This document shows positions 10,365-26,292 of a stretch of DNA of 64,000 nt, one piece after another; positions within the stretch are counted from its first letter, which is position 1, and each line of letters opens with the position of its first letter. A model generated the notes under the pieces. The model saw only the letters and a program-made list of their open reading frames with translations, was not told the DNA's origin and searched no databases. Source of the stretch: a virus. Taxonomy: Duplodnaviria > Heunggongvirae > Uroviricota > Caudoviricetes. The stretch lies in IMG/VR virus record IMGVR_UViG_2724679538_000004, positions 45,799 through 109,798 of that record; one strand, given 5' to 3'. The position numbers were made by a program, and so were the translations under genes.

Positions 10365-10784
10365 ATGTTTACTGAAACGCTGCTGGAAGATGAGCTTGAT
10401 CGGAAAACGACAGAGGCTCTTATTCGCGTGGCAGACGAACATTCCAGGTCGCTTCTAAGTGATCGAGAGGCTCGTTTGGTAATTCGCGCCATATTTGAAA
10501 CGGTGCAAGGACTTGTTGGAGCGCAAGTTGGTGAAGCCGTTAATTTTGCAATGAATCAATTCAGTGGCGAAGCCAAGAAGCCACTGTTCCCTATGCATCT
10601 GAAGCTCGCGAATGGAACGGTGTTGTATGTTTCTGTTTGTCTTGATAATAACCAAATAAACGTACTCAATGTGACATCTGGCGAATGGCGCGATCCGGTT
10701 GTTTGCGAAAGTGGTGAAGAAGCATTGAAGAAAGCAGCTCAGTTTGTGCGTAGCGCATTGCTGAAAGGCGCGAAGAAGTTGTAA
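10365..10784 (+). CDS. hypothetical protein
   Basis: 139-aa ORF with RBS. Confidence 0.4.
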   Translation: MFTETLLEDELDRKTTEALIRVADEHSRSLLSDREARLVIRAIFETVQGLVGAQVGEAVNFAMNQFSGEAKKPLFPMHLKLANGTVLYVSVCLDNNQINVLNVTSGEWRDPVVCESGEEALKKAAQFVRSALLKGAKKL

Positions 10785-10793
10785 GGAGTATTA

Positions 10794-11351
10794 ATGGCTA
10801 CGTTAGTCGCTGGTATCGATATTGAGTCTACAGGGCTGGATTTCAGATCTGGTCATAAAATCATTGAAATTGCCATTACTCGTTATGAACTGGAGTCGCA
10901 ATCACACATCGATAACCTTGTAATGCGTTTTAATCCGCGTCGCAGCATTGATCCAAAAGCCCAGGCGGTTCATGGCATTTCTCTCGAAGATCTGGCAACC
11001 GAACCGTTGCTGTCTGACCATGCAAAAAAGATTGCCGATTACATGGGTACATGTAGTGCATGGGTTGCGCATAACGGCGAAGCGTTTGACATTCCATTCA
11101 TTCGTCACGAGTTTTCAGGGTATGGGATTGTATTATCGGACATACCACTAATAGACACTATGCTATCAGGTTTATGGGCTACCGAAGATGGCAAGCGTCC
11201 TCGTCTGGAAGAATTGGCGTTTTCACTTGGTTTTATTTATGACCATAAAAAGGCACACAGTGCATTGTATGACACTGATCTGATGATGAAGTGTTTCTTT
11301 AAGGCAAGAGATAAATACGGTTTTTTCAAACTGCCTTTTGAATCAGTATAA
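10794..11351 (+). CDS. DnaQ-like 3'-5' exonuclease (DEDDh family)
   Basis: Exo I GIDIESTGL, Exo II HNGEAFDIPF, Exo III HSALYDTD; AAGGAG RBS. Confidence 0.75.
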   Translation: MATLVAGIDIESTGLDFRSGHKIIEIAITRYELESQSHIDNLVMRFNPRRSIDPKAQAVHGISLEDLATEPLLSDHAKKIADYMGTCSAWVAHNGEAFDIPFIRHEFSGYGIVLSDIPLIDTMLSGLWATEDGKRPRLEELAFSLGFIYDHKKAHSALYDTDLMMKCFFKARDKYGFFKLPFESV

Positions 11352-11359
11352 CTTTAAAC

Positions 11360-11390
11360 AAAGCCTACTTTTTACGGAGTAGGCTTTGTC
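11360..11390 (+). terminator. terminator-like hairpin
   Basis: AAAGCCTACT...AGTAGGCTTT inverted repeat directly after the exonuclease stop. Confidence 0.45.
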
Positions 11391-11663
11391 AATACTAAAA
11401 GTATGCAACAAACAGCCTGGCGTATTCTACAACTGCAACAACACATTTAATTATAAAACTGCCTATGTTACCTTTTTGCGACGGGATTCCAAAAATACAG
11501 TTCTTGTGGGCCTGATGGTATATTTACAAGCCAAAAATTGCGAACAGGACCAACAATGCGCCTTCTATTTATTTCCTGCCTGTAATTAACACTTTTCCGC
11601 CTGATAGGTTTCATCAAAATATACACAGTGACGAAACAACTTAACAACTGACAGGAGCACGAA

Positions 11664-12455
11664 ATGAGTGTCGTTGAAAATGCAGTATTGAAAGATGACC
11701 TTGATGAACTGACAGCAATGCTTCAAGCGCTTGATGAACCAGTGCAAAAGGCGTCGCGGGTAGAAAATACAGATGAAATTGACAACTTACTTGAAGGACT
11801 GGATTCAGGTATTGCAGTAAGTTCCGATGACATTGTAGGGGAAGTGATAGACGCTGAGGTCTCTGGTGATTTTAGCTTTGCGTTAAATGAGTTAGAAATT
11901 GAACATGAGTCATTAAATGTAAACGATAAAGAAGAAGAGGAAAAAATTGAGTCTGATATATCTCAAAATAAAATAATTTCTGTTTCAGAGGAACAAATTA
12001 GCAGGTCAGATAAAGGAAAAAATAACAACAAAAAAATCCGTTCCACAAGAGGTCCACGCTTTACACTGGACGACAAAGAACAGTCATTTTTTGAAAATGC
12101 AGGCCTCGATAAAGAATCATTCCTTGCAGCTTATGAAAAAGCACCAGTTAAGGCAAAGGATAAGGTTTTGAATTTATTAAACTGGTTTAGTGGTGGTCCA
12201 GATATTAGTGTTTATACAGTAATATCATTGCGTCACATTATTGAGGCTAATGTGGCTACAAGTAACAGTATTAAAATTGCTTTGATGAGCAATCCTGAAA
12301 AACCTTATCCACTCAACACAGCATCAACGCAGGCCGGTCAGATGATGGCTGTTTTTCCTGCTACTGGAGTCGCTTTACGAGAAGGTGGAAATCTTACACT
12401 GAATGTGGAGTCGCCGATCATTAAGAAGTTTAAAGCGGAGTACACTATTGGATGA
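11664..12455 (+). CDS. hypothetical protein with strongly acidic N-terminal half
   Basis: 263-aa ORF with GGAG RBS; D/E-rich first ~100 residues. Confidence 0.5.
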   Translation: MSVVENAVLKDDLDELTAMLQALDEPVQKASRVENTDEIDNLLEGLDSGIAVSSDDIVGEVIDAEVSGDFSFALNELEIEHESLNVNDKEEEEKIESDISQNKIISVSEEQISRSDKGKNNNKKIRSTRGPRFTLDDKEQSFFENAGLDKESFLAAYEKAPVKAKDKVLNLLNWFSGGPDISVYTVISLRHIIEANVATSNSIKIALMSNPEKPYPLNTASTQAGQMMAVFPATGVALREGGNLTLNVESPIIKKFKAEYTIG

Positions 12456-12529
12456 AGTTCCCCTACTCAAAATAAAGCCCATAGAGAGCATTTTGTTGCT
12501 GGGTAAGCCAATCGCATACCCAGCACTAA

Positions 12530-12577
12530 AAAAACGCGTCAGAAAGCTTCTCGTGCACGTTCTGACGCGTTTTTTAT
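12530..12577. terminator. intrinsic terminator (A-run, hairpin, T-run)
   Basis: AAAAAACGCGTCAGAA...TTCTGACGCGTTTTTT. Confidence 0.6.
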
Positions 12578-12606
12578 TGGTTGATATGCATTTGAGGAAA
12601 TGAAAA

Positions 12607-12628
12607 AATAGGTAAGTAGTTACCTATA
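12607..12628. promoter_or_regulatory. copy of recurrent palindrome (AATAGGTAAGTAGTTACCTATA)
   Basis: Inverted repeat 13 nt upstream of the Dam-like start. Confidence 0.4.
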
Positions 12629-12640
12629 CGGAGTGATTCA

Positions 12641-13234
12641 ATGATAGCGGCTGAGAAAATTAAAAAACGAGAGCGTGACCCTTCTCTTAGAGATCTATGG
12701 CGCACACCTCAATGGTTGTTTAACGCTATCCAGAAATACTTAGGTGTTCAATTCGATGTGGACGTTGCCTGCAACAAAGACAACGCTCTTCTTGCAAATT
12801 ACATAGGCGTGGAGCGTGATGCTTTGAAAAGCAACTGGGGAGAACCGGGCACTATAGCATTCCTAAACCCGCCCTACTCGAAAATTTCCCCGTGGATCGA
12901 GGCCGCAATACGCGAACAAGCACGAGGTGTCACTACAGTTATGCTTATACCACAATCCCTTGATACAAAATGGTATGAGCGGGCCACTGAGCACGCAAAC
13001 GAAACGGTTATTCTGTCTGGAGGTCGTGTGGCTTTCGTGGAACCAGACGTTAATTTGGGATTTGTGGAGGTAAACATTAACCCTGGTGGAAGTATGCTTC
13101 TGATTTTTAGAGGCTTTTGTCAGGGAGCTGGACACACGATTAGAAAAATTCCTCTGGCGGTGTTGAAACAGCTGGGGGGTTATGATCCTGCCAATGTTTC
13201 CAGAAAGAAAAGAACATACAAGAAGGCAGCTTAA
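12641..13234 (+). CDS. phage Dam-family DNA N6-adenine methyltransferase
   Basis: DLWRTPQWLF and NPPYS motifs typical of phage Dam-type methyltransferases. Confidence 0.7.
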   Translation: MIAAEKIKKRERDPSLRDLWRTPQWLFNAIQKYLGVQFDVDVACNKDNALLANYIGVERDALKSNWGEPGTIAFLNPPYSKISPWIEAAIREQARGVTTVMLIPQSLDTKWYERATEHANETVILSGGRVAFVEPDVNLGFVEVNINPGGSMLLIFRGFCQGAGHTIRKIPLAVLKQLGGYDPANVSRKKRTYKKAA

Positions 13235-13236
13235 GT

Positions 13237-13335
13237 TCTGTCTGGGAGTGTTCTTGGACCTGCTTCTGTATAAATAAATACATACTAATATATTAATATA
13301 CAGATGCAGGTTTTTTGTAGCAAACGTGCCAGACC
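13237..13335. repeat. nested-hairpin element (outer GTCTGGG/CCAGAC, inner AT-rich CCTGCTTCTGTATA/TATACAGATGCAGG, T-run)
   Basis: Read directly; a paralogous element lies at 42805-42903. Confidence 0.5.
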
Positions 13336-13416
13336 TTGACAACATCCCAGAACCCACTAGAAACCCTCCCCAGACGCTCTAGAATCAATTTTGAGTAGCA
13401 AAGTAAGGAAACACAC

Positions 13417-13647
13417 ATGGTCTATCAAACAAACGTTGTAGCGCTCGTTGAGAGCGATTTTCTAGCCCAGGCGCGTGAAATGCTTAAAGATCGCGAGCGG
13501 GCGTTTAATTTGTATGAATGGGCACTCAAATGCCTACATCTTGGCGAGCATAAAGAACTTGTTGAACAGCTGTTAGGTGAGTTGATTAATGAGGTGTTTG
13601 CCTTAAACGTCCAGCTACATGGGCGAGAAAGTAACCAACCCCAATAA
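13417..13647 (+). CDS. hypothetical small protein
   Basis: 76-aa ORF with AAGGAA RBS. Confidence 0.35.
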   Translation: MVYQTNVVALVESDFLAQAREMLKDRERAFNLYEWALKCLHLGEHKELVEQLLGELINEVFALNVQLHGRESNQPQ

Positions 13648-14183
13648 TAGATAAGTACCTACTATTCATATTATTTATCTTAAGTGATAGGATACTATAG
13701 TTTTCAGTCCATGTACTGGAGACTCGACCTGATGGGTGGAGGGTAGCGTCACTGGCGTCAGGTTTAAAAAAAAGCTCACTACCAGCGTAGAACCGGTGCC
13801 GTTTAGGCGCTGGGGAAGGGGGAACCAGAGTGAGCAGAGACAAGGGTCACTTTATGATTGTCGAGTCTGGGAAGTTCGAGAGGTTGAATCCAGTACTCCC
13901 CTTCATAAAGTGTGGGAAGATCTCGGTTCTGGGATGCTGTCATCCATAACTTCCCAAGCTTAAGCTGGCAGTAGACTTAAGCCATAACTTTTCAGGTTAT
14001 GAAACGACCAGGTTGGTGAGGAACTTTTGTACTCACCTCCCTGGGAGGATATTACCTGAAAAGACAACCTCTCACTTCGTTCGAGGTGAACTTCACTCAC
14101 TTCGTTCGTTCAGTTCAGATTAATTAAAAACCTCTTCTGGGAAGTAAGGTTTTAAAAAATAAATTTATTATTAATAAGTTATA

Positions 14184-14208
14184 ACACGCACGCGTGTGCG
14201 CACGCGCG
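14184..14208. other. 25-nt perfectly alternating purine/pyrimidine GC-rich tract (ACACGCACGCGTGTGCGCACGCGCG)
   Basis: Read directly; about 40 nt upstream of the RNase HI start. Confidence 0.5.
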
Positions 14209-14246
14209 AGGAAAAAATCGGCGCGGCGCTTGATTCAGGAGTTTAT

Positions 14247-14843
14247 ATGACGACGAAGACACCAGCCCGATCGCAAGCAAAAACTCTCAAAAAAGCCAAA
14301 AACAAAAATTCTCCCCGCACCAATCACACAACGCCTGTCGTAGAGTTCAATCCCCAGCTTAAAACCGTGAAAATCTTTAGTGATGGCTCTTGCCTTAAAA
14401 ATCCGGGTGGTCCTGGCGGTTACGGTATCGTTCTCCAGTATCGTGGTGAGGAACGCGAGTTCTCAGATGGTTTTCATAGCACCACTAATAACCGCATGGA
14501 GATGATGGGCGCACTCATCGGGCTGGAGCGTTTGAAATATCCATGCAACGTTATTTTGTACTCTGATAGCCAGTATCTGAAAAACGGCATGACACAGTGG
14601 ATGAAATGGTGGAAACGAAATGGATGGATGACTTCTGATAAAAAACCGGTAAAGAATGTTGATCTGTGGAAGCGTCTGGATGAGGCCGCAAGTCGACATA
14701 ATGTTCGCTGGAAGTGGGTTAAAGGCCATGCGGGACATCGTGAAAACGAGATCTGTGATCGTCTTGCTAAGATTGCAGCATTCACTGCCGCTGATACTCC
14801 ATTTAAAAAAGATTTAGGTTTTTTGAATCAAAATAGTAAGTAA
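14247..14843 (+). CDS. rnhA: ribonuclease HI with basic N-terminal extension
   Basis: [45 protein letters not shown] align with E. coli RNase HI; ATG 14247 preceded by CAGGAG. Confidence 0.85.
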
Positions 14844-14985
14844 GTATTTACCTATTATTTAGATTAAGGTATTCTGATCACCGTCAGGATGACAATGTGT
14901 CGGTGAGACACAGTTCCAGGATGGAACGGGAAAGGCGGCTGGTTAATGCCAGCCGCAACTCTTTCTGACACTGGATGGAGTCCTA

Positions 14986-15483
14986 ATGGCACGTCAAACC
15001 TATTTCACTTCTGCAACTAAAAGCAAACGCCCACGCTCTTTACGTCAAATTTTGGCCGAGCTATTTAGCGGTCGCGCTTTGTCACGCCTTGATGAACTGG
15101 AGTCTACCGTTCAGTTGCTGACGAAACGTTTAGATGATCAAGCATCAGTCGTTGCGAATATGGGGGCGATTGTTACCTCTCGTTCTTCACGCGAGGCGAA
15201 AAAAGTACGTCCTTTAGTGAAGGAGAAAAATAACAAGGACAGTTCGAATGGAAAATTTTCAAAGAAAGAGGCTGAAACCAATGGCCTACGCTCTCATTTT
15301 GCTTTCACTGGCGACGGTAGCCGTCCCAGCAGGCCAGAGCCTTTTGATGCAGGATTCTTCCACCACACGTCAGCCGACGACAATTTCCACCGCTCCAGTG
15401 GAGCGTCCTGTCTCTCTGGATGGGATGTCGGTGGATGCGATACCTCAAGTTCATCCAGTTACTCTGGATCATGCTGCGATTAA
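14986..15483 (+). CDS. hypothetical protein (Ser-rich C-terminus)
   Basis: 165-aa ORF with GGAG RBS. Confidence 0.4.
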   Translation: MARQTYFTSATKSKRPRSLRQILAELFSGRALSRLDELESTVQLLTKRLDDQASVVANMGAIVTSRSSREAKKVRPLVKEKNNKDSSNGKFSKKEAETNGLRSHFAFTGDGSRPSRPEPFDAGFFHHTSADDNFHRSSGASCLSGWDVGGCDTSSSSSYSGSCCD

Positions 15484-15492
15484 GGCTGTTGC

Positions 15493-15681
15493 ATGAACTG
15501 GCTTTCAAATCACTTTGGAAAAATTTGGCTGGTTATTGTGGCTCTCATGGCCGCAGGTTGGGTGTCAAACATTGTAAAACTCGTTTGCTCTGGGGATCTC
15601 CAGTTTCAGGCTGGAATGACTCTGGCTCGTGTAGTTGGGATTTTTATGTTTCCAGTCGGTTCGGTGCTTGGCTATTTCTAA
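15493..15681 (+). CDS. small hydrophobic (membrane) protein
   Basis: 62-aa ORF with two hydrophobic segments. Confidence 0.4.
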   Translation: MNWLSNHFGKIWLVIVALMAAGWVSNIVKLVCSGDLQFQAGMTLARVVGIFMFPVGSVLGYF

Positions 15682-15740
15682 TGCGTGTCGGAGTTGAGGC
15701 TTTAGAAGCCATAGTTCATGTAATTCTGTTTACTTCACTT

Positions 15741-15760
15741 AGAAAACAACTTGTTTTGAC
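15741..15760 (+). promoter_or_regulatory. promoter/operator family motif (AGAAAACAACTTGTTTTGAC)
   Basis: Near-palindrome upstream of the TerB-like gene. Confidence 0.4.
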
Positions 15761-15782
15761 AAATAACATATAGGAAAAACAC

Positions 15783-16208
15783 ATGTTAGGTTTCTTTAAA
15801 AAGAAAACTCGTAAAGCTGTTATCGAAGTCAAAAAAATGGAGAACCGTGATGCGGTTGAAGCCACTGTGTGGGGCGCGTATATGATCTCCTATTCCGATG
15901 GCACATGCGATGCAAAAGAAATTTCCATTCTTGAGAAAACAATTGCAGCTCTGCCTGCGTTTTCTCCGTTTGCTGCTGAGATAGCCCAGATGAGTGCCAA
16001 TATCCGCGCTCAATACGAAGCCTCACCACGCCGAGCTAATGCTCAAGCTTTACGTGAACTGGCTGATGTGGCCGGGACTAATGATGCAGTAGATGTTCTG
16101 TGTCTGTGTATTGATATTGCCGATCAGGACGGTATTGGCGAGGAGGAAGAGTTGGTGTTGAAAAAAATCGCTCAGGCGCTCCAGCTTTCACTGGATGCTT
16201 ATCTCTAA
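15783..16208 (+). CDS. TerB-like domain protein
   Basis: Two repeated segments (ISYSDGTCDAKE... and IDIADQDGIGEEEE...IAQALQL) resembling the TerB tellurite-resistance fold. Confidence 0.55.
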   Translation: MLGFFKKKTRKAVIEVKKMENRDAVEATVWGAYMISYSDGTCDAKEISILEKTIAALPAFSPFAAEIAQMSANIRAQYEASPRRANAQALRELADVAGTNDAVDVLCLCIDIADQDGIGEEEELVLKKIAQALQLSLDAYL

Positions 16209-16366
16209 TGCTTGAGAGATTCCGGCTTGTGATCGTCATTGCTCTTTTGGTGATGGCGGTGCTGGTGGATTTTACGGGAAAGATCATGTCTGTCATTTCT
16301 GATGGCGTTCTTGTTGGTCTGGCGATCTACTTCGCTCGCCCTCTAATCCGTAATGCAAAGTGTTAA
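16208..16366 (+). CDS. small hydrophobic protein (52 aa)
   Basis: TAATG-coupled to the TerB-like gene; mostly hydrophobic; below the ORF-track size cutoff. Confidence 0.35.
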   Translation: MLERFRLVIVIALLVMAVLVDFTGKIMSVISDGVLVGLAIYFARPLIRNAKC

Positions 16367-16371
16367 TAACA

Positions 16372-16397
16372 AGGGCCGACTATGGCCCTTTTGTTTC
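16372..16397 (+). terminator. intrinsic terminator
   Basis: AGGGCCGACTATGGCCCT hairpin plus T-run. Confidence 0.5.
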
Positions 16398-16408
16398 ATG
16401 GAGCGCGT

Positions 16409-17224
16409 ATGTTTGAGATTTCAACACTCACTTCTACTACCAAAGGTTTTCACGATAAGCCTTCAATGACCAGTCAGGAGATTGCCGAGTTGGTTGGCAG
16501 TCGTCACGACAGCGTTAAACGCACCATAGAACGGCTGGTAAAAACTGGCGTCATTACTTTTCCACCAATGGTGGAAAAGCCCACCGCAGGTCGCCCTTCG
16601 ACGATGTACCTGTTTGAAGGCGATCAGGGCAAACGAGACAGCATTGTCGTAGTTGCGCAGCTGTCGCCGGAATTTACGGCACGTTTAGTTGATCGCTGGA
16701 GAGAGTTGGAGTCCATATATGGCGCAGCTGTGACTCCAGCGATACCTCGTACCTACAAAGAAGCTCTTGTTCATTTGCTTCATCAGGTTGAAGAAAACGA
16801 GCGCCTTGAAAAGAAAAATGAGGCTTTGGAAGTAGCGCTGTCAAATGCAAAGCCAAAAGCCATTCTGATGGATACGATTTGCGGAACCGCAAATGAACTT
16901 TACGGGCTTAATGAAGCTGGGCGCATTCTCGGTACATCTGGTGTTGTTATGGGGGAATTTCTGGATTCTCTTGGCGACGTTTATGTAAAGCGCAAATACA
17001 CAACTATCAATCGTCAGTTCTTGAAGGCTTTCATTGACCGTGGCTATGGGAAAAATGTCGTGATCGGAACTGGACGTAACCAGGCAAAATTCACCTTTAA
17101 GGGGCTTTGCTTTGCGGCTGTGAAGCTGATTGCCGCAGGAAAAATAACCGTCAACTCCATCGAATATGAACCGTGCCGGGAACATGTTGAGCGTGAATTG
17201 AAGGGCGCAAAAAGTCTTCATTGA
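16409..17224 (+). CDS. Rha-family phage regulatory protein (antirepressor-like)
   Basis: MTSQEIAELVGSRHDSVKRTIERLV matches the Rha N-terminal signature; ATG 16409 with GGAG RBS. Confidence 0.55.
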   Translation: MFEISTLTSTTKGFHDKPSMTSQEIAELVGSRHDSVKRTIERLVKTGVITFPPMVEKPTAGRPSTMYLFEGDQGKRDSIVVVAQLSPEFTARLVDRWRELESIYGAAVTPAIPRTYKEALVHLLHQVEENERLEKKNEALEVALSNAKPKAILMDTICGTANELYGLNEAGRILGTSGVVMGEFLDSLGDVYVKRKYTTINRQFLKAFIDRGYGKNVVIGTGRNQAKFTFKGLCFAAVKLIAAGKITVNSIEYEPCREHVERELKGAKSLH

Positions 17225-17295
17225 TTTTCAACGTGGACACTCACCTTTTCATTGCGATTGTTCCCCTCTCCTAATCAGACACAATAAAGCCAATA

Positions 17296-17316
17296 AGAAA
17301 ACAACTTGTTTAATCA
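17296..17316 (+). promoter_or_regulatory. promoter/operator family motif (AAGAAAACAACTTGTTTAATC)
   Basis: Directly upstream of the RBS of the 17331 gene. Confidence 0.4.
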
Positions 17317-17330
17317 TCAAGGAAAAACAC

Positions 17331-17900
17331 ATGTGCGAGAAATGCAAAGCGATAGCTGATGAACAAAATGCCCTATTTGAAGAAATGGGTGCTAATGAGC
17401 TGGTAAAAATGTTAGCCATTCTTCGGGGAATAGAAGACGTTTCCATATTTGAGAGAGTGCTAACAGCACATAGTTTTAAGTCTACCTTTGAAGAGCCAAT
17501 TCAGGTTGTCGCTTTGGCGCACCATTTTGGTGTTCATTATCTTGCTGAAAAAGAGCGAGCTAAAAAGTTGCAGGCGACTTTGGATATGGTGAGCGAGCCT
17601 CAACGAACTCATGACGATAACAAGAGTGAGACGATTATTGCTGACAAAGATCGTGAAATTGCCGGACTCAAATCCTCTCTAACAATGTTGATGTCCGCAA
17701 TGAACCTGGTGTCATCTCAGGCTGGCTTAAAAATGCCATCACTAAATAGCTATGATCCGATGGCAGTGCGCCAGCTGCTTGGTGCAATGGCTGATCAGCT
17801 TGACGACACGAAAAATCGTATTGAAGATATGATGCGGGAACTTAGTCATCGTCATAATCTGACAACTCAGCCACATAAAGCTTTTCAAGTATCACATTAA
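17331..17900 (+). CDS. hypothetical protein
   Basis: 189-aa ORF with AAGGAAA RBS. Confidence 0.45.
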   Translation: MCEKCKAIADEQNALFEEMGANELVKMLAILRGIEDVSIFERVLTAHSFKSTFEEPIQVVALAHHFGVHYLAEKERAKKLQATLDMVSEPQRTHDDNKSETIIADKDREIAGLKSSLTMLMSAMNLVSSQAGLKMPSLNSYDPMAVRQLLGAMADQLDDTKNRIEDMMRELSHRHNLTTQPHKAFQVSH

Positions 17901-17902
17901 TA

Positions 17903-17927
17903 AAAGGGGATTCGTCCCCTTTTTCCT
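17903..17927 (+). terminator. intrinsic terminator
   Basis: AAGGGGATTCGTCCCCTT hairpin plus T-run. Confidence 0.6.
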
Positions 17928-17970
17928 TACCTAAGTGAAATTTTAAAAATATTATTCTTTTTATATTATT

Positions 17971-18414
17971 TTAAATACCAGGATTAGATAAATTGTCTAT
18001 GAATGTGCGGGTGGTATTGACAAATCCAGACCCAGAAAAGCGCATAATGAAGCCGTTTTCATCAAAAGTTACGCTCTTTTTATTCATAAATTCATTAAAA
18101 ATATGATTTGTGCCTGCTCTTGTTGAGGGATACCAATATATTCCCATATCACTGTCGCAGTCCTGATGCATGCGAACCTTTACACCGTTTATTTGCATGG
18201 GGACTGACTCGCCTGTTGTAGTGCATTTTTGTGATCTGTATGGTGTTAAGTATAAACCAGGTTCATTACCCTTTGATCTGGCAATAAAAATATACCAATT
18301 GCCGTCATCTGACAGTACTGCCGGAAGACTGTTCTTGGCTATATACCATCCTTCGGCGTTTGCCACAGATATTGAGCCGAATGTCAGAAGCATTGCGGCG
18401 ATAAATTTATGCAT
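17971..18414 (-). CDS. secreted protein of unknown function (moron-like, opposite strand)
   Basis: N-terminal signal peptide MHKFIAAMLLTFGSISVANA; flanked by AT-rich DNA. Confidence 0.55.
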   Translation of the reverse strand: MHKFIAAMLLTFGSISVANAEGWYIAKNSLPAVLSDDGNWYIFIARSKGNEPGLYLTPYRSQKCTTTGESVPMQINGVKVRMHQDCDSDMGIYWYPSTRAGTNHIFNEFMNKKSVTFDENGFIMRFSGSGFVNTTRTFIDNLSNPGI

Positions 18415-18635
18415 CGTTTTACCTCTTTAAAGAAAGGCTATTAATTTAATGGTTAAGGTGCAGTCACAGGCATTCAATTGAAGTGTAGAAAAAATTGAAG
18501 GCGCTAAGCGATAAGCGCTAATCAATGTAGCATAATACGTTGTTGTTGTAACAATAAAACAACATGTAATTTTGACGTCCATCGCCTTAATAACATCTTT
18601 ATCCCCTTTTTAACTTATTCATAATTAAACCAATT

Positions 18636-18654
18636 AGAAAATAATTTGTTTACT
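18636..18654 (+). promoter_or_regulatory. promoter/operator family motif (AGAAAATAATTTGTTTACT)
   Basis: Upstream of the methyltransferase-fusion gene. Confidence 0.35.
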
Positions 18655-18663
18655 GGTTTGATT

Positions 18664-20349
18664 ATGACAACTGCCCTTTCAATCACTGACACCTTCAAAA
18701 CAAGTTCAGAAGTTGACTATCGAAAAGAGCTTAACCTCATCCATAAAATCGTTGCAGAGTGCGAACGCGAGATCGCTTTCATGCGCCAGGTACATGATTA
18801 CGTATATGGCGATGAACGCCATAAGATGATTAATCGTTTGTTACGACTTAACTACCGTCCAGATGATGAGAACGCTCGTTTTAATAACATTGTACTGGAC
18901 AAGGCTGATCTCGAATGGGTGAAGCAGAACATCTGGGCTGAATACTGGAAAAAGGTCACTGATATGACTAACGTTCTGCTGATCATGCCAGCTTCCCGTC
19001 GCGAGGAGTGGCGTGAGCAATTTATCGAGGGCAAGCAGGAAATCACCAAAACTGACAGAACTGGCTACCAGATGAAGGTTAAGGAGTTCGTTGGAGTACC
19101 CGAGTTCAAGGTAGAAACTGTCATACCAACGATGATTAGCCTTCTAAATGACAGACATAAATATCTTTCTGAGCGCGTGTACGGTTTGTTTAAGGTGCTG
19201 AGTCCTGCACATAAGACCAACAAAACGAACGGCTTTAGCGAACGTTTGATCATTGCCAATTGCATTACTGATTTTTGGCGGGATAGCGTAAGTGTTAATT
19301 ATAAGCTTGAGGACTACATTGACGATCTGCGGGTATTGCTGCATTTCTTCGCGCACAAAGAGTTCATTACTATTAATCGCAGTTCGCAGATGCTATCCCT
19401 GGCATACAGAGCTAATGGCTGCAACACCGGTGAGTGGGTGAGCGTCGACGGCAATTTAATGCGTGTGAAGATGTTCAAGAACGGTAACGTTCACTTCGAA
19501 ATCCACCCTGACGTGGCCTGGAAGTTGAATGAAGTTCTGGCGCACAGTATGCCATCAGCCATACCTGCACCATGTCGTACCGCGCCAAAAACGCGAGCGC
19601 CAAAAGAGTTTGGCACTATTCATAAGATTATTTCAGACCCTGTACGAATCGCTTTGCGAGACGGACGACGTACCCGTAATCAAGAAGCCTGGTACTTTTC
19701 TGATTCATGTTTGCAGAAAAATCAGGTGGAAGAGTTGGAGCGTACATTAAGTTTTATTGGAGGAGTACGGGAGAACAGTCAGTGGACGTTCCCCTATGAT
19801 GCGACACAAACAATAAACAGTATCGTTGATACGGGGCTAGTTCCAGAAGCGAAATCACACCAGTTCTATCCAACACCGCATGTAATCGCTGAGTATGTGG
19901 CGAGAGCGATCGATCATAAGCCTGGAGAAACTCTTTTGGAACCGGAAGCCGGGCGTGGTGATTTGTTGTCCTGTATTGACGCTAACCGGGAAGATATTAC
20001 CTGCATAGAATTAGCTCCCCTTTTTGCGGATATCCTCCGTTCAAAGGGGTACGCGAATACGATTTGTTGCGACTTCTTGAAATGGTCAGAGAGTAATGCA
20101 GGCTATCAATTCGACAAAATCGTTATGAATCCCCCCTACTCTTTTAATCGCTATAAAGAGCACACGCTATCTGCTCTTGGGCATCTGAAAGTTGGAGGCA
20201 GGCTGGTGGCCGTGTTGCCGGGAAACTCGCCTTCGCTTAATTGGATGACTTTGGATAATTACGTTTATGCAAAGGGGAAATCTTTCACTGGTGAGTTCGC
20301 TGATACGGGGGTTACTGTCAGCGTGTATGTCTTCAAACGCGTAAAATAA
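18664..20349 (+). CDS. DNA methyltransferase with a ~400-aa N-terminal domain of unknown function
   Basis: C-terminal ~160 aa carries FYPTP, LEPEAGRGDL (SAM-binding) and NPPY motifs; ATG 18664. Confidence 0.65.
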   Translation: MTTALSITDTFKTSSEVDYRKELNLIHKIVAECEREIAFMRQVHDYVYGDERHKMINRLLRLNYRPDDENARFNNIVLDKADLEWVKQNIWAEYWKKVTDMTNVLLIMPASRREEWREQFIEGKQEITKTDRTGYQMKVKEFVGVPEFKVETVIPTMISLLNDRHKYLSERVYGLFKVLSPAHKTNKTNGFSERLIIANCITDFWRDSVSVNYKLEDYIDDLRVLLHFFAHKEFITINRSSQMLSLAYRANGCNTGEWVSVDGNLMRVKMFKNGNVHFEIHPDVAWKLNEVLAHSMPSAIPAPCRTAPKTRAPKEFGTIHKIISDPVRIALRDGRRTRNQEAWYFSDSCLQKNQVEELERTLSFIGGVRENSQWTFPYDATQTINSIVDTGLVPEAKSHQFYPTPHVIAEYVARAIDHKPGETLLEPEAGRGDLLSCIDANREDITCIELAPLFADILRSKGYANTICCDFLKWSESNAGYQFDKIVMNPPYSFNRYKEHTLSALGHLKVGGRLVAVLPGNSPSLNWMTLDNYVYAKGKSFTGEFADTGVTVSVYVFKRVK

Positions 20350-20369
20350 TAGGTAAATACTTACTTAAA
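20346..20369. promoter_or_regulatory. copy of recurrent palindrome (AATAATAGGTAAATACTTACTTAA)
   Basis: Overlaps the stop codon of the methyltransferase gene. Confidence 0.35.
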
Positions 20370-20410
20370 ATATGTAAGAATGTAGTTAGTTGAAGACGAG
20401 AGAAAAGCAC

Positions 20411-21106
20411 ATGACAAATTACAGATTTACGGCATGGGATGATTCACGGCCCCCCTTCAAATTCTGTATGAGAGGAGAACTTGATCAGCCTGCTGGAGCA
20501 ATCATCATCGATAAAGATGTTGTTAAGTTTGAGGGTGACTTTGATACATCAGCAAAGCTTTTCGTTGAACATGTTGCCAAACGCTGGAGTAAGCAGTGGA
20601 AAAGCCTTGAAAAACGCGCTCTTGGATTTGATGTATTTATGGCTGGCATTGATACAGCAAAAAAGGCTCTGGCTGCCGGAAATCCATTAGATCTTGAATC
20701 ACTTTTCAAAGGTGAAATGGCCTCAGCCATGTTCGCCACTATGTTCGCGGGTGAGTTCGTCCGTAGCGGTGCCAGAAACTATCTGGAGCTGTTGTACAAC
20801 GTTCCTGAAATGGGTGATTTTACCGTCACTATTCAACGCAAAGAAGGTAAGACTCCAGGCGAACGTATCGCTGAACTTGAGGCTGTGGTGGACCAGCGTA
20901 ACGGAGAATGTGATCGTTTGGTCAACGAACTTAATGCTCTCCGGGAAGAAAAAATTGGAACGGGTAGCAATACACGCAATGCTGCGGATATCTACTTCCA
21001 GTTAGTCGAGGAATGCCAGATTCCACCAGGCGGATCTCTTGTCGATTACGTCAGACATTTAATGGAGCAAGTGGATTCCAAAGATAAAGATAGTGAGGGA
21101 CGCTAA
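20411..21106 (+). CDS. hypothetical protein
   Basis: ATG 20411 with GAGAG RBS; the tracked ORF begins at an upstream TTG. Confidence 0.45.
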   Translation: MTNYRFTAWDDSRPPFKFCMRGELDQPAGAIIIDKDVVKFEGDFDTSAKLFVEHVAKRWSKQWKSLEKRALGFDVFMAGIDTAKKALAAGNPLDLESLFKGEMASAMFATMFAGEFVRSGARNYLELLYNVPEMGDFTVTIQRKEGKTPGERIAELEAVVDQRNGECDRLVNELNALREEKIGTGSNTRNAADIYFQLVEECQIPPGGSLVDYVRHLMEQVDSKDKDSEGR

Positions 21107-21384
21107 TGTTTGGCGTTGATGCAGGTCGTATTGCTGCTTTTGTACAAAAGCCACTTGAAAACCCACTGTCTCGCAGTGAGCAAATGGAACTTGCAAGGCT
21201 GTTTCTGCATATCAAGGAACAGATGGATTCCTTCAACAGTCTTCCAGAACGGCCTATTTCTGACGTTCATGTTCAGATGGTCATTGATAGCCACGAAAAG
21301 GGTTGGGCGACGATTGTTCCCTGCAAAATCACTTATGAACTTGCAAAAGAAGTAAAGGAATTACGAGGTAGTAAAAATGACTGA
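21106..21384 (+). CDS. hypothetical protein
   Basis: 92-aa ORF overlapping the upstream stop. Confidence 0.4.
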   Translation: MFGVDAGRIAAFVQKPLENPLSRSEQMELARLFLHIKEQMDSFNSLPERPISDVHVQMVIDSHEKGWATIVPCKITYELAKEVKELRGSKND

Positions 21385-21697
21385 TCGAAAACGATTTGAG
21401 GCATGGTGTTGTAAGAATTTAAGGAAGTGCAATCTTTTAAAAATTGGCGGATCAAATGGTGAGTACATTTCGCCAACAATGCAGGCTCGTTGGGAGATTT
21501 GGAAGGCAGCCTCGCAGGAAATGCGTCGAGTAGCCTCCGCATTCAAAACAGGTGAAGCTGTGTCCGCTAAAGCTGCAATAGATACGCTTGATCGCATGGG
21601 GTTTACGTGGGAAGGGGGTGTCTACTGGAAGCCTCCGGTTGGATTAATTCCCTCATATCTCATCCAGCAGCTTAATGCCGAGCACAACCCATCGTAA
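21377..21697 (+). CDS. hypothetical protein
   Basis: 106-aa ORF overlapping the upstream gene by 8 nt. Confidence 0.4.
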   Translation: MTDRKRFEAWCCKNLRKCNLLKIGGSNGEYISPTMQARWEIWKAASQEMRRVASAFKTGEAVSAKAAIDTLDRMGFTWEGGVYWKPPVGLIPSYLIQQLNAEHNPS

Positions 21698-21704
21698 ATA
21701 AATA

Positions 21705-21725
21705 AAGGCCATAAGTTATGGCCTT
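21705..21725. terminator. hairpin (AAGGCCATAAGTTATGGCCTT)
   Basis: Inverted repeat after the stop codon; no clean T-run. Confidence 0.4.
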
Positions 21726-21726
21726 A

Positions 21727-21785
21727 AATAAATTGTTTTCTACCTTTTCTTATTTGTGAAAATAACCACAACTAGAAAACAATGG
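21727..21785 (+). promoter_or_regulatory. sigma70-like promoter (TTGTTTTC ... TGTGAAAAT) plus operator half-site
   Basis: Nearly identical to the promoter at 27652-27718. Confidence 0.45.
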
Positions 21786-21793
21786 AGTTAAGA

Positions 21794-22435
21794 ATGTCTC
21801 GCATTTCCGAAGCACACATGTTCGCCGCTGGCGCTCATGGTGGCGTTGGCCAGAAAAGAAAATATACCGGTGAAGATTATATCAATCACCCGGTTGCTGT
21901 CCGAGAGATTGTTGCATTGCATGACGGAACCGTGGAGATGCAGATCGCGGCGCTTCTGCATGATGTGGTCGAAGACACCAATGTAACCACAGAGATGGTA
22001 CGTGATCACTTCGGTGAGCGCGTAGCTGAAATGGTTCAGGCTCTGACCAATATTGCAAGGCCAGAAGACGGCAATCGAATACAGCGTTTCATCATCAATG
22101 TCCGGGAGCTGGAGCAAAATCTCGACATGCAGACGCGCATGATCAAGCTGGCTGACCTGCTCGACAATACCTCTTCTATCGTGAGTCGCGATCCTGAGTT
22201 TTCAGCTATCTACCTTGCAGAGAAAGAGCTGATGCTGGACGTACTTTTTAACGGGAAGGAGATTGGTACCAACGCTGATGTTGTCGAGTACATGGAGAGG
22301 ATAGGTATAGAACACCCGTTGCTATTAAGCGCAATGGCGAAAGTCACTGAAGGTATTGCGCTTCTGAAACCGGTACTCATCAAACGTTATGAAAAACACA
22401 AATCGCTGATCTGGAGCGCGTGGGAGGCTGCATGA
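21794..22435 (+). CDS. HD-domain small alarmone hydrolase, (p)ppGpp-hydrolase-like (SpoT/Mesh1 family)
   Basis: HGGVGQKRKYTGEDYINHPVAV and AALLHDVVEDT match the RelA/SpoT HD hydrolase signature; GGAG RBS before ATG 21794. Confidence 0.75.
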   Translation: MSRISEAHMFAAGAHGGVGQKRKYTGEDYINHPVAVREIVALHDGTVEMQIAALLHDVVEDTNVTTEMVRDHFGERVAEMVQALTNIARPEDGNRIQRFIINVRELEQNLDMQTRMIKLADLLDNTSSIVSRDPEFSAIYLAEKELMLDVLFNGKEIGTNADVVEYMERIGIEHPLLLSAMAKVTEGIALLKPVLIKRYEKHKSLIWSAWEAA

Positions 22436-22974
22436 AGGTCGAAAAAATAGATGTTCTTTCCTTTGTGTTGACAGATCTGGAACGTCTCGATCCGGTTCGA
22501 GTGATGATTGAAAACTACGAATCTGGTAAGGGAAGAATCACCATCACCTGCTACGGAAAAGCGTGGACTGCGGCTTGGTTTGCTATGGGCGGTGATGATG
22601 TGCAGACGTTCATCAAGCGAGTCAGCAACGACTATCTAATCGACAATTTCGACCCTCAACTGCCAAGAACGGTCGACGATGACAACGATGCAAATCTGCT
22701 TTTCGTGAAGTCAGAAATAATAAAGTTACGAAGAGAGAGAGAAATCGACGCCGTACTGGCTCGTGAAATGTGGGACGAGGCGGAAAACGCCGATGACGTA
22801 AAAGAAAGCTGCTGTTGTTTCGGCGTCGGTAACAAACTGCTGAATCTCTTTGGCGATGATCCGTGGTATGCCTCCTGGCCAACGATACCAAACCCGAAAT
22901 ACCAGTATCTTGAACGCATTGTGAACGCGGTACGTGAAGGGTTGAAAGAGTTAGACAAGTTAGAGGCATCGTAA
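22432..22974 (+). CDS. hypothetical protein
   Basis: ATG 22432 with GGGAGG RBS. Confidence 0.45.
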   Translation: MKVEKIDVLSFVLTDLERLDPVRVMIENYESGKGRITITCYGKAWTAAWFAMGGDDVQTFIKRVSNDYLIDNFDPQLPRTVDDDNDANLLFVKSEIIKLRREREIDAVLAREMWDEAENADDVKESCCCFGVGNKLLNLFGDDPWYASWPTIPNPKYQYLERIVNAVREGLKELDKLEAS

Positions 22975-23468
22975 TGAGAGAGAAAATCAAGAACCCGGTC
23001 GTCGTATTGTATAAACGGGAAAACAGCGATTCTTATGCGGTATCCATCACTGATGGAAGCCAGAACATGCACGATGGCCTGCTAATGGCCTCAGTGTCTC
23101 CTGATGAGTCGGACTATCCCTTCGCCACCTTCGCTATGGTTGGTTACTACATGGCTGCCGAAATTGAGAAGTTACGGGCGCAGAGAGACGCATTGGCGGC
23201 GGAGAATGTGGCATTGAGGTCTAAGGCTGAGGAACTGGCAAATGAAGCGTCAAAAATTTACTCGGCATACAACGCCACTATCACAGAGCCTGACGGGGAT
23301 TTTATAGACATGCAGACACTGCATGAAATGCAGTGCATAGAAACTCCAGCTACCGACGCTTTCCTAGTTGAAGTACGAGCGCAGGGCGTAGAGGTGTTTG
23401 CTGAGTGCGCATACACACTTGAACATCATGATCACGCAGTGGCCTTCGCATCAAAGGAGAGTGAGTGA
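22974..23468 (+). CDS. hypothetical protein
   Basis: 164-aa ORF, TAATG coupling. Confidence 0.45.
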   Translation: MREKIKNPVVVLYKRENSDSYAVSITDGSQNMHDGLLMASVSPDESDYPFATFAMVGYYMAAEIEKLRAQRDALAAENVALRSKAEELANEASKIYSAYNATITEPDGDFIDMQTLHEMQCIETPATDAFLVEVRAQGVEVFAECAYTLEHHDHAVAFASKESE

Positions 23469-23469
23469 T

Positions 23470-23667
23470 ATGGATAAAAATACCCCTGCTTACTGGAGTC
23501 TATCACTTGATACCGAATGCCCGAAATGCGGTATCAATTTCGATCTACTTTGTGATGCTGATTTCTGGGAGTTTTCTGGAGCAAAACAGGCATGTGAAGA
23601 AATAACAGGTTACGAAACATGCTGTCCAGAATGCAACCATGAATTTAAAACAGATTTTGTGTATTGA
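23470..23667 (+). CDS. small zinc-ribbon protein
   Basis: CPKCG ... CCPECNH cysteine pairs. Confidence 0.4.
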   Translation: MDKNTPAYWSLSLDTECPKCGINFDLLCDADFWEFSGAKQACEEITGYETCCPECNHEFKTDFVY

Positions 23668-23677
23668 AGCATAGCAA

Positions 23678-24307
23678 ATGACCACCTTTACTAAAGAACA
23701 ACTAATTGATCATATTAATGATCGCAAAGATGTCCGTCAGAGAATGTTGGAAACTGCGACGATTTCTTCTGGATTCAGAGAATATCTTGAAAGAGAGCTT
23801 GCCACCGATCGGATTGCCCTGGCGTCGCTGGAAGCAAAACCAATAGGTGCATTCCACATTGCAGAACAGCAAGTTGAAGGCACAAGTGACTATCTCAAGG
23901 ATGGAGAATGGCCTATTGATAATGGAATTATTGAGGTCTACGCCGCTCCACCCGTTCCAGTAGTACCGGAAGAAAAACCAATGCCTAATCCTCTTAGCAT
24001 GTACGCGGTTGATGCTGTTGCCGCTATTGCAGAGGTGAGAGGATGGAACGCCTGCCGCGCAGCCATACTTCAGAGTCAAGATAGGGGCATTAAGGATGCA
24101 TGGATAAGCTGTAGTGAGCGAATGCCAGATGATGGTCAGCACGTAATTATTTTATGTGATGGCGCATTTGTTCTTTATGCGCAATATCGAGACGGTGAGT
24201 TTTTTGATGTCGTCCGTGATGGTGATGAATTTTTCGAAACGCAGAGCCGCAACGTCACACACTGGATGCAGCTACCAGAACCGCCGCAGGAGTCGAAGAG
24301 TGAATAA
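23678..24307 (+). CDS. DUF551-like domain protein
   Basis: C-terminal WISCSERMPDDGQHVIILCDG ... VTHWMQLPEPP resembles the DUF551 signature seen in enterobacterial prophages. Confidence 0.5.
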   Translation: MTTFTKEQLIDHINDRKDVRQRMLETATISSGFREYLERELATDRIALASLEAKPIGAFHIAEQQVEGTSDYLKDGEWPIDNGIIEVYAAPPVPVVPEEKPMPNPLSMYAVDAVAAIAEVRGWNACRAAILQSQDRGIKDAWISCSERMPDDGQHVIILCDGAFVLYAQYRDGEFFDVVRDGDEFFETQSRNVTHWMQLPEPPQESKSE

Positions 24308-24521
24308 AGCAGAGTTATTTCAGAAAATATCGGCTCTCGCGGCTGAATGCCACGCTATAGCATCTGAGCTTGATGTTGGCGACGAACGAACCGAGATGTT
24401 CGAAATATACAGTGTACTGCGCAATCTCTCTCGGCGTGGCTACGCCATTCAGGTAGGGCGAGTGACTAATCCACTACTCACATCATGTGATGAGGATGAC
24501 CCGGATGAGGATGACGAATGA
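24300..24521 (+). CDS. hypothetical small protein with acidic C-terminal tail
   Basis: GTG start preceded by AGGAG. Confidence 0.35.
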   Translation: MNKAELFQKISALAAECHAIASELDVGDERTEMFEIYSVLRNLSRRGYAIQVGRVTNPLLTSCDEDDPDEDDE

Positions 24522-24901
24522 TGAATAAATCAGTAGCCGGTGAGTTTCAGAAGGAAGTCGATAATACCACTGTTCTATTGGACGATATTTTAAGCATTCT
24601 CGCGCTGCTTGAGGCTGGAGAATGGTCAGAACATTGCACCAAAACAGAGCTAGGCGGTCGGCTTGAAAGAGAGATTACACGGCTGATTAGCGATGCCCAA
24701 AATTATTTGTCACCTGAGAACCTCCCTTGCGATGTAGTCCTTGTGCCAGGGATGAGGATACACGAAGGTGTCAGAACGAAAACATTATTGACCGCATTAC
24801 AGAGAAGAGCCGAATTAAAGTCGCGGGTTAAGTTGATGCCATCGAAAATGCTTGATGCCATCAAATTTACGCAATCGCAACATACTGAGAGAGATAAATG
24901 A
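24518..24901 (+). CDS. hypothetical protein
   Basis: 127-aa ORF, ATGA coupling. Confidence 0.4.
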   Translation: MMNKSVAGEFQKEVDNTTVLLDDILSILALLEAGEWSEHCTKTELGGRLEREITRLISDAQNYLSPENLPCDVVLVPGMRIHEGVRTKTLLTALQRRAELKSRVKLMPSKMLDAIKFTQSQHTERDK

Positions 24902-25527
24902 GCACGGTAGCGAAAGATCTCACAGAAGATATTCTCAATGAAATTATTGCTGGCGCGAATACCTCGCTTGAACAATATCTTGCGTTGGCGCTAAGAGCCG
25001 AACGTCGAGACAGAAAGCATTTTTATGAGCGATTACCAGGGAAGCGACCAGATAGATCAGATGAAGAAGGTAGCGATATAGACTACATGGAACCTTTAGA
25101 TGTTTATCAACTTGGTAAAGATGATGGCTGGAACGCTTATCACGATGCTGTGTTGAAGTTGGATGAAAAAGTGAAACCTCTTTCGCGACCAGTAGATCAC
25201 GGTTTTCGCGATAACTGCGAGTGCTCTAGTTGTCAGATCACGGCTCGTATTTGTTCCGAATTAACAGATAAGTCCACCCTAATCTACGAAGTTAATGTAG
25301 GCGGTAATACATGGGTCGAATGCACAAGAGCTGCATACGTAAGAGCAAAAGACAACGGCGAATTGACCAGAGTTGTTACCCATCACCCAAATAATGTGCT
25401 TAAAGATCACCAGATTCGAGAACTAGTGAATGAATTGCGGGATATTGCGGTTACGTATCACGGAACGCAGCAATTGCGGGAGAAGATTGCCAGAGCAGTG
25501 AACAACTCAATCCGTCCAGAAAAATAA
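24898..25527 (+). CDS. hypothetical protein
   Basis: 209-aa ORF, ATGA coupling. Confidence 0.45.
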   Translation: MSTVAKDLTEDILNEIIAGANTSLEQYLALALRAERRDRKHFYERLPGKRPDRSDEEGSDIDYMEPLDVYQLGKDDGWNAYHDAVLKLDEKVKPLSRPVDHGFRDNCECSSCQITARICSELTDKSTLIYEVNVGGNTWVECTRAAYVRAKDNGELTRVVTHHPNNVLKDHQIRELVNELRDIAVTYHGTQQLREKIARAVNNSIRPEK

Positions 25528-25544
25528 GTAATAGTACGATAAAG

Positions 25545-25569
25545 AGGCCCCATGCTCTTGATGGGGCCT
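25545..25569 (+). terminator. hairpin after gene end
   Basis: AGGCCCCATGCTCTTGATGGGGCCT. Confidence 0.4.
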
Positions 25570-25736
25570 GTAGCAACAAGCGTTATGGACGTTGGTTTAC
25601 GTACTCAATGATCGCTTTGATAATCGCGAACATCGGCGGCACGATTTTGAAAAGTAAGTTAAGCATAACAGGCCTCACTTAGTTTTATCGCGCCTAGCTG
25701 CAAATACCTTTGAGCTTGCCTTTGCAGTTGCAATAT

Positions 25737-25933
25737 CTGTAGTCGCCAGATACTTACGGCACGATTTCGAGTTAAGGTAAGGTTTGAGAGTCACCAAAAA
25801 CCTGGACTTAAATCTTCTTTGAGAACAATGATGTTTAGTAAATGGTCATTGTTACTAGGTATGACCACTCTACGTTTCTTGATGAATCCAGTACATTCGG
25901 TTAATCTTAACTCAGTCGCCAGATACTTATGGC
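25737..25933. repeat. two direct repeats AGTCGCCAGATACTTA(C/T)GGC about 174 bp apart in an 800-bp noncoding gap
   Basis: Read directly. Confidence 0.5.
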
Positions 25934-25970
25934 TCAGGAACAGAGACGCAAACTCCGTTTCCTTTTAAAA

Positions 25971-25998
25971 AGCCCGGTCTAGTCAACTGGGCTTTTTA
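25971..25998 (+). terminator. terminator-like hairpin
   Basis: AGCCCGGTCTAGTCAACTGGGCT plus T-run. Confidence 0.45.
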
Positions 25999-26292
25999 AT
26001 GTCTGCTTTTTAACCAAACATACCCTCAATACTGCAACATCAGTGTCTTGCGAATCAAGATAGTGTGTATAGATTTTTCATGCAAGTGCATAAGTCTGTG
26101 GATAACTCAGGAAGGAAAAAGTGACTTCCGCGCACTTTAGGCCGGACAAGGCCTTCGAAAAAGTCAATGGGAAGAAAAAATTTGTTAAAAATAACGTTTG
26201 TTTGAATTGTATATTTTATACCTGTCAATAGTTAGCATCTTATTAACATCTTTTTTAAGAGACAGAGTTTAAAAACATGTCGCTCCAACATA

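Follow-up and report, generated by a model that had tools for sequence, protein, structure and literature searches.

The window analysed here, a stretch of 64,000 nucleotides of viral DNA, carries at positions 17971–18414 of its minus strand an open reading frame (ORF) for a protein of 147 amino acids, and we consider it very likely that this ORF is a moron, i.e. an accessory cassette placed between two genes of the backbone: the strict hallmarks that a sequence can show are present, apart from a convincing promoter. The window itself is identified by nucleotide comparison as an SSU5/pHCM2-like phage-plasmid of Escherichia fergusonii. It is collinear with SSU5-group genomes of ~105–112 kb and is 72–88% identical at the nucleotide level to Escherichia phage PhiR41_1, phage SSU5 and hundreds of non-mobilizable plasmids (~79% in case of Salmonella phage SSU5), with larger stretches being 75–88% identical to hundreds of non-mobilizable Escherichia plasmids, most of them ~105–120 kb in size; the identical 147-residue protein is also recorded from E. 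fergusonii. Taken as a whole, the explanation towards which we lean goes further, in that the moron would encode an exported protein with an IalB-like fold that protects the carrier cell. Morons are one of the chief means for temperate phages to alter their hosts. The present case is well supported but belongs to a kind of feature that is already known, and is not a surprise.

For the assignment we applied the definition of Juhala and Hendrix, in which a moron is recognised by flanking genes that are adjacent in a related phage, by its own terminator, its own promoter and a deviating base composition, and by expression in the carried state. Adjacent flanks are found in phage SSU5, where SSU5_094 and SSU5_095, the homologues of the two flanking genes (Table 1), lie next to each other at a distance of 141 nt and the gap holds only a terminator that differs from that of the window (GGGGGC-gaaa-GCCCCCTTTTTT); the matched spans indicate that the flanking genes are likewise adjacent in three SSU5-like phages of Klebsiella. 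In local blastn comparisons with the relatives labelled L001, L002, L006, L009 (an E. coli contig) and L029 (Cronobacter pCS1), homology ends at 17878–17888, just inside the end of the gene for the 189-residue protein on the left, and resumes at 18598–18621, depending on the relative; compared with PhiR41_1, the left flank shows 87% nucleotide identity up to position 17888. A blastn search of PLSDB with 17889–18660 returned no matches. The base composition deviates as well: the ORF has a GC content of 39.9% and the AT-rich DNA that had been described on both sides of it amounts to 24% GC (17901–17970) and 31% GC (18415–18645), against 45.6% for the window. Both flanking genes are encoded on the plus strand, and the ORF thus runs opposite to its neighbours.

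The terminator of the cassette was found at 17902–17924. The initial annotation had described a strong plus-strand terminator at 17903–17927 and had placed the gene between terminators; the hairpin is real, but its restriction to the plus strand does not hold. Since it folds well on both strands (plus strand: –11.6 kcal/mol, z –2.8; minus strand: –12.1 kcal/mol, z –2.0), we regard it as a bidirectional terminator that is common to the two convergent genes, and on the minus strand it is followed by UUUUAUU. A generic terminator scan missed this hairpin, apparently because extension of the stem through A-T pairs consumes the T-run, and the hairpins at the equivalent position in SSU5 and PhiR41_1 differ from that of the window. 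As for the second of the two terminators, the upstream element at 18489–18526 (–10.3 kcal/mol, z –2.8 on the minus strand) is terminator-like but lies 5′ of the gene; it might shield the gene from antisense read-through or be left over from the donor context. The hairpin was also considered as part of a 5′ leader, an attenuator or a riboswitch, but no Rfam family was matched on the locus, and neither the hairpin nor the surrounding sequence is conserved in the E. coli allele described below.

What is found between the two flanking genes varies from relative to relative. In PhiR41_1 and ~119 PLSDB plasmids (E. coli, Shigella) the slot is occupied by two membrane-protein genes co-oriented with the backbone, which match phrog_557 (‘outer membrane protein’) and phrog_425 (‘membrane associated protein’, moron category); this is the cargo carried by most E. 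coli and Shigella relatives. Cronobacter sakazakii pCS1 (L029, 3722–7051) has an antiparallel type I restriction-modification (R-M) system (hsdM, hsdS, hsdR) at this position, and in some E. coli contigs an insertion sequence (IS) element or R-M genes adjoin the slot. In Citrobacter pA_CitB, E. coli pLAO4 and many E. coli contigs, the occupant is a 147-residue homologue of the window protein, ~45% identical and likewise antiparallel, that has its own, different spacers and terminator. The usual occupants are thus envelope proteins or defence systems. Given that relatives carry either nothing or varied cargo, the SSU5_094/SSU5_095 slot is recognised in these alignments as a true accessory hotspot, and the window is seen to carry a rare allele of one hotspot cargo. 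The empty slot, the varied cargo, the breakpoints, the terminator and the lower GC content, together with the cargo sites that family members occupy elsewhere (see below), bear out the moron layout proposed in the initial annotation. A separate observation concerns pCS1 and the E. coli SSU5-like contigs L009 (1–5796) and L011 (3380–5796), in which the hotspot has taken up type I R-M genes and IS3-family elements; in L009 and L011 the DUF4942 methylase gene beside the insertion is reduced to a remnant of 158 residues.

The same comparisons bear on the possibility that the gene is phage-own, i.e. a core gene of SSU5-type phages with a role in lysis, virion assembly or DNA entry. The gene does lie in a phage-plasmid, and one homologue forms part of a P2-like tail operon, in which it is co-oriented with the tail genes; however, the gene is absent from SSU5 and from most relatives, runs antiparallel to its neighbours and has copies on non-phage small plasmids and chromosomes, and tblastn searches with the window protein and one distant member (that of a jumbo phage) gave no matches among 50,697 deposited phage genomes. 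Because functional relatives do without the gene, a core function is very improbable and effectively refuted. At the outset, membership of the conserved core together with an intracellular function already known had been named as the outcome that would speak against a moron; this is likewise not what we encountered, the gene being rare among relatives and having an export signal.

The ORF is present exactly as first described, with an ATG start codon and a Shine-Dalgarno site, and is almost certainly a real gene. AT-rich DNA yields long chance ORFs, ORF length by itself is weak evidence in such DNA, the promoter search gave no convincing match and the databases all say hypothetical: these points would suit a spurious ORF or a decaying pseudogene in an AT-rich spacer. 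Against such a reading stand full-length homologues at 25–50% identity with invariant cysteines, ratios of nonsynonymous to synonymous divergence (dN/dS) of 0.11–0.15 wherever dS is unsaturated, a good Shine-Dalgarno site, a confident fold prediction and the presence of the identical protein on 20 contigs; conservation leaves it with next to no probability, and we regard it as refuted. The invariant residues of the homologues and the dN/dS values are what lead us to a real gene rather than a chance ORF, and the same low dN/dS values indicate that the genes of this family are under purifying selection. Between the window allele and all others synonymous sites are saturated; it is the most divergent allele of the 147-residue clade, with a dN of 0.41–0.51.

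The initial annotation had noted a clear signal peptide, and this reading holds. The N-terminus consists of MHKFIAAMLLTFGSISVANA followed by EGWY, with a lysine-containing n-region (MHK), a hydrophobic core (FIAAMLLTFGSISV, Kyte-Doolittle values of up to 2.5) and an A-N-A motif before E21. The assignment is rule-based, with rules that ask for positive charge in the n-region, hydrophobicity in the h-region, small side chains at –3 and –1 and the absence of a lipobox, and the protein displays the complete layout expected for Sec export and cleavage by signal peptidase I (SPase I); the N-terminal export segment is kept in all 31 aligned relatives. We therefore consider export of the product to the periplasm to be highly probable. 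A lipoprotein comparable to Bor, Cor or Llp was ruled out, as no lipobox cysteine is found near the cleavage site in this reading.

A structure was also predicted, as the initial annotation had suggested. The AlphaFold2 model, calculated from an alignment of 31 sequences, has a mean predicted local distance difference test (pLDDT) score of 86.9 and a predicted template modelling (pTM) score of 0.77, with the mature domain mostly above 90 and the signal peptide modelled with lower confidence as a separate helix. The topology comprises six or seven β-strands, a helix (99–111), two further strands and a C-terminal helix (131–143), and the predicted model shows the IalB fold as in PDB 3DTD; the top fold match was the same with a first model built from a shallower alignment. 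Foldseek searches against BFVD returned a phage protein annotated as IalB (probability 0.99) and four unnamed phage proteins (E 1e-6 to 3e-5). A weaker fold match was obtained with chain A of PDB 8z5n, a component of 270 residues from the LPHT ring of the Vibrio polar flagellar motor, which from its chain length is probably MotY. Based on this model, the mature protein probably adopts an IalB-like fold.

The protein belongs, as far as database searches tell, to a rare and unnamed family that is carried by many kinds of mobile elements. Among 5.8 billion proteins it accounts for 15 clusters at 90% identity, and among 1.84 billion 50%-identity clusters for 29 representatives, 26 of which are ~105–205 residues long whilst three are long proteins (784–3,575 residues) that match over short stretches only. 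The 26 representatives include proteins of Enterobacteriaceae, Aeromonas and Xenorhabdus, with the others being metagenomic; a later profile search added a member from Vreelandella, and a third search with a broad profile yielded no further named or multi-domain members. Within the 31 aligned members (145–204 residues), C64, C86, G101 and F131 are invariant and Y55, N76, V80, F109 and V115 nearly so, and the chains end in G-L, G-I, A-L or A-I. Database annotations of the family read hypothetical, apart from some UniRef entries labelled ‘Lipocalin-like domain-containing protein’, a label that is not borne out by the fold search. Pfam searches with the window protein and 17 relatives gave sub-threshold noise only (GBS_Bsp-like, Fungal_lectin, DUF2690), PHROGs returned one weak match (phrog_17116, function unknown), and sequence and profile searches of the PDB produced chance matches only (SBP-domain proteins, sequestosome-1).

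At least four further types of temperate phage carry members of the family at sites typical of cargo. In a Cronobacter prophage the gene lies between an AlpA-type gene and gtrA-gtrB-gtrC with a tailspike gene; in a lambdoid prophage it is found between the antiterminator Q and the holin/lysozyme genes, antiparallel to them; and in a P2-like prophage it stands between the genes for the tail tube FII and the gpE chaperone and shares the orientation of the tail genes. Seven prophage contigs from IMG/VR have a member less than 400 nt from one contig end, and in the one such contig examined (L036) it lies beside an integrase gene. On the chromosome of Aeromonas media (CP038444.1; L041, 5259–6480), a member follows 33 nt downstream of a co-oriented Arc/Mnt-type repressor gene, which suggests co-expression with a repressor that would be maintained in lysogeny. 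This locus is an immI-like region; P22 keeps sieA in its immI region. The opposite strand of the Aeromonas locus carries a second Arc gene and an AntA antirepressor gene, and a gene for a polyvalent protein of 3,620 residues (methyltransferase, ddrB-ParB, LPD38) adjoins.

Plasmids also carry the gene: a Rop/ColE1-type plasmid in which it lies next to Tn3-bla, a ColRNAI plasmid and a 6.2-kb Rep3 plasmid are among the carriers, and on Klebsiella plasmids of 2.1 kb it is the sole ORF of more than 100 residues (a search of the ~2.1-kb plasmids against Rfam matched no families). The members on these 2.1-kb plasmids belong to a clade of 153 residues, which occurs on small contigs from E. coli, Klebsiella, Salmonella and Yersinia, and environmental members stem from a jumbo-phage contig, small plasmids in marine metagenomes, Atlantibacter, compost, Vreelandella and Xenorhabdus. 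Unrelated mobile elements have thus taken up the gene repeatedly and by itself. A toxin-immunity pair encoded in cis was considered and ruled out, since no partner gene was found in ~20 contexts.

The jumbo-phage contig (L016, 324–6955; also L017; Logan SRR28157684 and SRR28157685) contains a head-to-tail array of 14 genes for proteins of 141–160 residues, each with its own signal peptide, one of which (P0013) belongs to the family of the window protein. The other 13 are paralogues of one another with two invariant cysteines and without a Pfam match on record; we rejected them as paralogues of the window family, as the hhalign probability of 56% is driven by the signal peptide alone. A neighbour of the array, 550 residues long, shares 33–34% identity with proteins from Aeromonas phages PS1 and PS2 and from Klebsiella phage N1M2.

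In the explanation that we favour, the ~0.7-kb cassette, lying antiparallel between two SSU5-like backbone genes and equipped with its own ribosome-binding site and a bidirectional terminator, would supply a mature protein of 127 residues that is released to the periplasm and forms an IalB-like, β-rich domain with a C64–C86 disulfide. To judge from its distribution, this protein would work alone and need no partner gene, would do so during the prophage or plasmid state of the element, and may act by binding a component of the envelope. The carrier cell would then be protected at its envelope, either through exclusion of superinfecting phages or through neutralisation of a lytic agent that acts in the periplasm. 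We put forward this protective function as a tentative hypothesis only: such a benefit would explain the repeated pick-up of the gene by very different mobile elements, its presence as single-gene cargo on tiny plasmids and at positions expressed in lysogeny, and the slot that it shares with envelope proteins and an R-M system. Rather unlikely, in our estimation, is the broadest form of the idea, namely that the family is an unrecognised single-gene determinant of periplasmic protection with an IalB-like fold that spreads on its own among phage-plasmids, prophages of lambdoid, P22-like and P2-like type, a jumbo phage and ~2-kb plasmids, and that would stop phage entry at one of its steps or inactivate a lytic toxin acting in the periplasm.

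Two other roles for an exported protein of this kind have to be weighed. The protein could be a general housekeeping or stress protein of the envelope that is mobile by chance, binding peptidoglycan or an envelope machine, in the manner of an IalB-domain protein of Rhizobiales and of the Vibrio flagellar-motor component, and giving a modest benefit unrelated to conflict. This would suit the lone chromosomal copies between metabolic operons in Atlantibacter and Kluyvera and the purifying selection on the family, as well as two structural parallels: the IalB-domain protein RgsG is an essential periplasmic protein of the growth zone (PMC7327166), and the N-terminal domain of MotY, which the matched chain probably is, serves the flagellar T ring as a structural contact module and makes periplasmic protein-protein contacts. 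However, the distribution is patchy, at 15 clusters among 5.8 billion proteins, most copies lie on phages, prophages and small plasmids, and the ~45% identity between alleles of one slot fits cassette swapping better; we consider this role unlikely. Alternatively, the protein could be a host-interaction factor like Bartonella IalB or lambda Bor and Lom, whose effects on the animal host, in adhesion, invasion or resistance to serum or immunity, would favour colonisation by the lysogen rather than defend against phages or toxins. The predicted fold is what links it to IalB, but Pfam gives no IalB match, the mechanism of IalB is itself unknown, the signal peptide predicts a soluble periplasmic protein without a lipid or outer-membrane anchor, and members occur in environmental settings too, which makes such a factor distinctly improbable.

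Several observations also weigh against the explanation that we favour. The IalB model of Pfam (PF06776) matched neither the window protein and seven relatives at E values of up to 10 nor ten more relatives at up to 1; as it matches none of these 18 members, homology to the IalB family is not established. The molecular mechanism of IalB is unknown (PMC7327166). That the mature ~14-kDa protein is soluble in the periplasm and that it contains the C64–C86 disulfide are both inferred. It has no similarity in sequence or fold to the solved structures of Ivy, MliC/PliC, PliG, PliI, Cmi or T4 Spackle, and the defence models of PADLOC-DB v2 gave no matches at E values of up to 0.01. No toxin, effector or conserved partner gene was found in any of the ~20 contexts, and the lone copies among metabolic operons on the chromosomes of Atlantibacter and Kluyvera fit a general envelope role as well as they fit defence. 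Finally, inspection of 18415–18500 showed no convincing sigma-70 promoter between the upstream hairpin and the ORF, and the sole intergenic match to the consensus on the minus strand (18670–18641, 9/12) lies upstream of the terminator-like hairpin.

Table 1. Positions in the window of the cassette, its gene and signals, and the two flanking genes.
Feature	Position	Strand	Remarks
Variable cassette (~0.7 kb)	17889–18597		Without a nucleotide homologue at the slot in relatives, except for a 73-nt patch inside the ORF
Putative moron ORF	17971–18414	–	147-residue precursor; ATG start; stop codon 17971–17973
Shine-Dalgarno site AAAGAGGT	18421–18428	–	7 nt upstream of the ATG; read from the sequence
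Predicted signal peptide MHKFIAAMLLTFGSISVANA	18355–18414	–	Codons 1–20; Sec-type; predicted SPase I cleavage after A20
Mature domain (127 residues)	17974–18354	–	Invariant C64 and C86 (putative disulfide), G101, F131
Predicted bidirectional intrinsic terminator, hairpin AAAAGGGGA-ttcg-TCCCCTTTT with T-run	17902–17924	both	Common to the convergent genes
Terminator-like hairpin with T-run	18489–18526	–	5′ of the moron start codon, in the divergent intergenic region
Left flank backbone gene	17331–17900	+	189 residues; SSU5_094 homologue; phrog_5508 (function unknown); convergent with the moron
Right flank backbone gene	18646–20349	+	DUF4942 and N6-adenine methyltransferase (Pfam, PHROG); SSU5_095 homologue

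With regard to the right flank, the mechanical call starts the DUF4942/methylase gene at a TTG at 18646 (567 residues); given that its relatives are 561 residues long and begin with M-(T/N)-T-A-L-S-I, the true start is likely the ATG at 18664. Further to the left, a Rha-family regulator gene (16382–17224, plus strand) represents a second variable insertion: the region 16405–17280 is without a counterpart in PhiR41_1 and 72% identical in some E. coli phage-plasmids (L009), and SSU5 has an ‘anti-repressor Ant’ gene at this position. Upstream of it, in the early region, a plus-strand gene at 15783–16208 encodes a TerB-domain protein of 141 residues (Pfam PF05099, E 1.3e-7), which is also kept in PhiR41_1. 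For the region 10000–30000, relatives annotate metG (methionine-tRNA ligase), apbC, an HD-domain protein and ribonuclease HI, unusual backbone genes of cellular type that seem to be common to the relatives listed.

Phage-plasmids of the SSU5 group are common in clinical Enterobacteriaceae, and the present analysis maps in them an accessory hotspot between the SSU5_094 and SSU5_095 homologues, which can hold nothing, membrane proteins, a type I R-M system, IS elements or an exported protein. The analysis further delineates a small protein family, so far unannotated, that has been picked up repeatedly by very different mobile elements. That an exported, stand-alone protein is captured time and again suggests a phenotype that is selectable and would be simple to assay. 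A phenotype for the window protein would inform on the IalB-like fold; if periplasmic protection were true, it would be the first molecular function for the IalB fold.

Known morons of temperate phages include lambda bor and lom, the morons of HK97 and HK022, and gtrABC and sieA of P22. The unit in the window resembles these in lying between genes that are adjacent in a relative, in having its own terminator and a deviating composition, in being a variable occupant of one slot and in a product that appears to be directed to the envelope; in contrast to them, its carrier is a phage-plasmid rather than an integrated prophage, its terminator is bidirectional and common to the neighbour, and the promoter search gave no convincing match. 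Compared with the phrog_557 and phrog_425 cargo, it shares the SSU5_094/SSU5_095 slot and the predicted envelope destination, whereas the sequences are unrelated and that cargo consists of two genes co-oriented with the backbone. From IalB itself (PDB 3DTD; COG5342), described in alphaproteobacteria (Bartonella, Brucella, Rhizobiales), the protein differs in that identity is 13% and in that its family is gammaproteobacterial and found on mobile elements. Chain A of 8Z5N, part of a flagellar ring, has 270 residues and, if it is MotY, a second, C-terminal domain, whereas the window protein shows neither sequence similarity to it nor a flagellar context. T4 Spackle, Ivy, MliC/PliC, PliG and Cmi are small, Sec-exported, often disulfide-bonded and stand-alone proteins that act by binding in the periplasm, and it is this type, comprising Spackle, the lysozyme inhibitors and the colicin M immunity protein Cmi, that we take as a working model for how the window protein may act.

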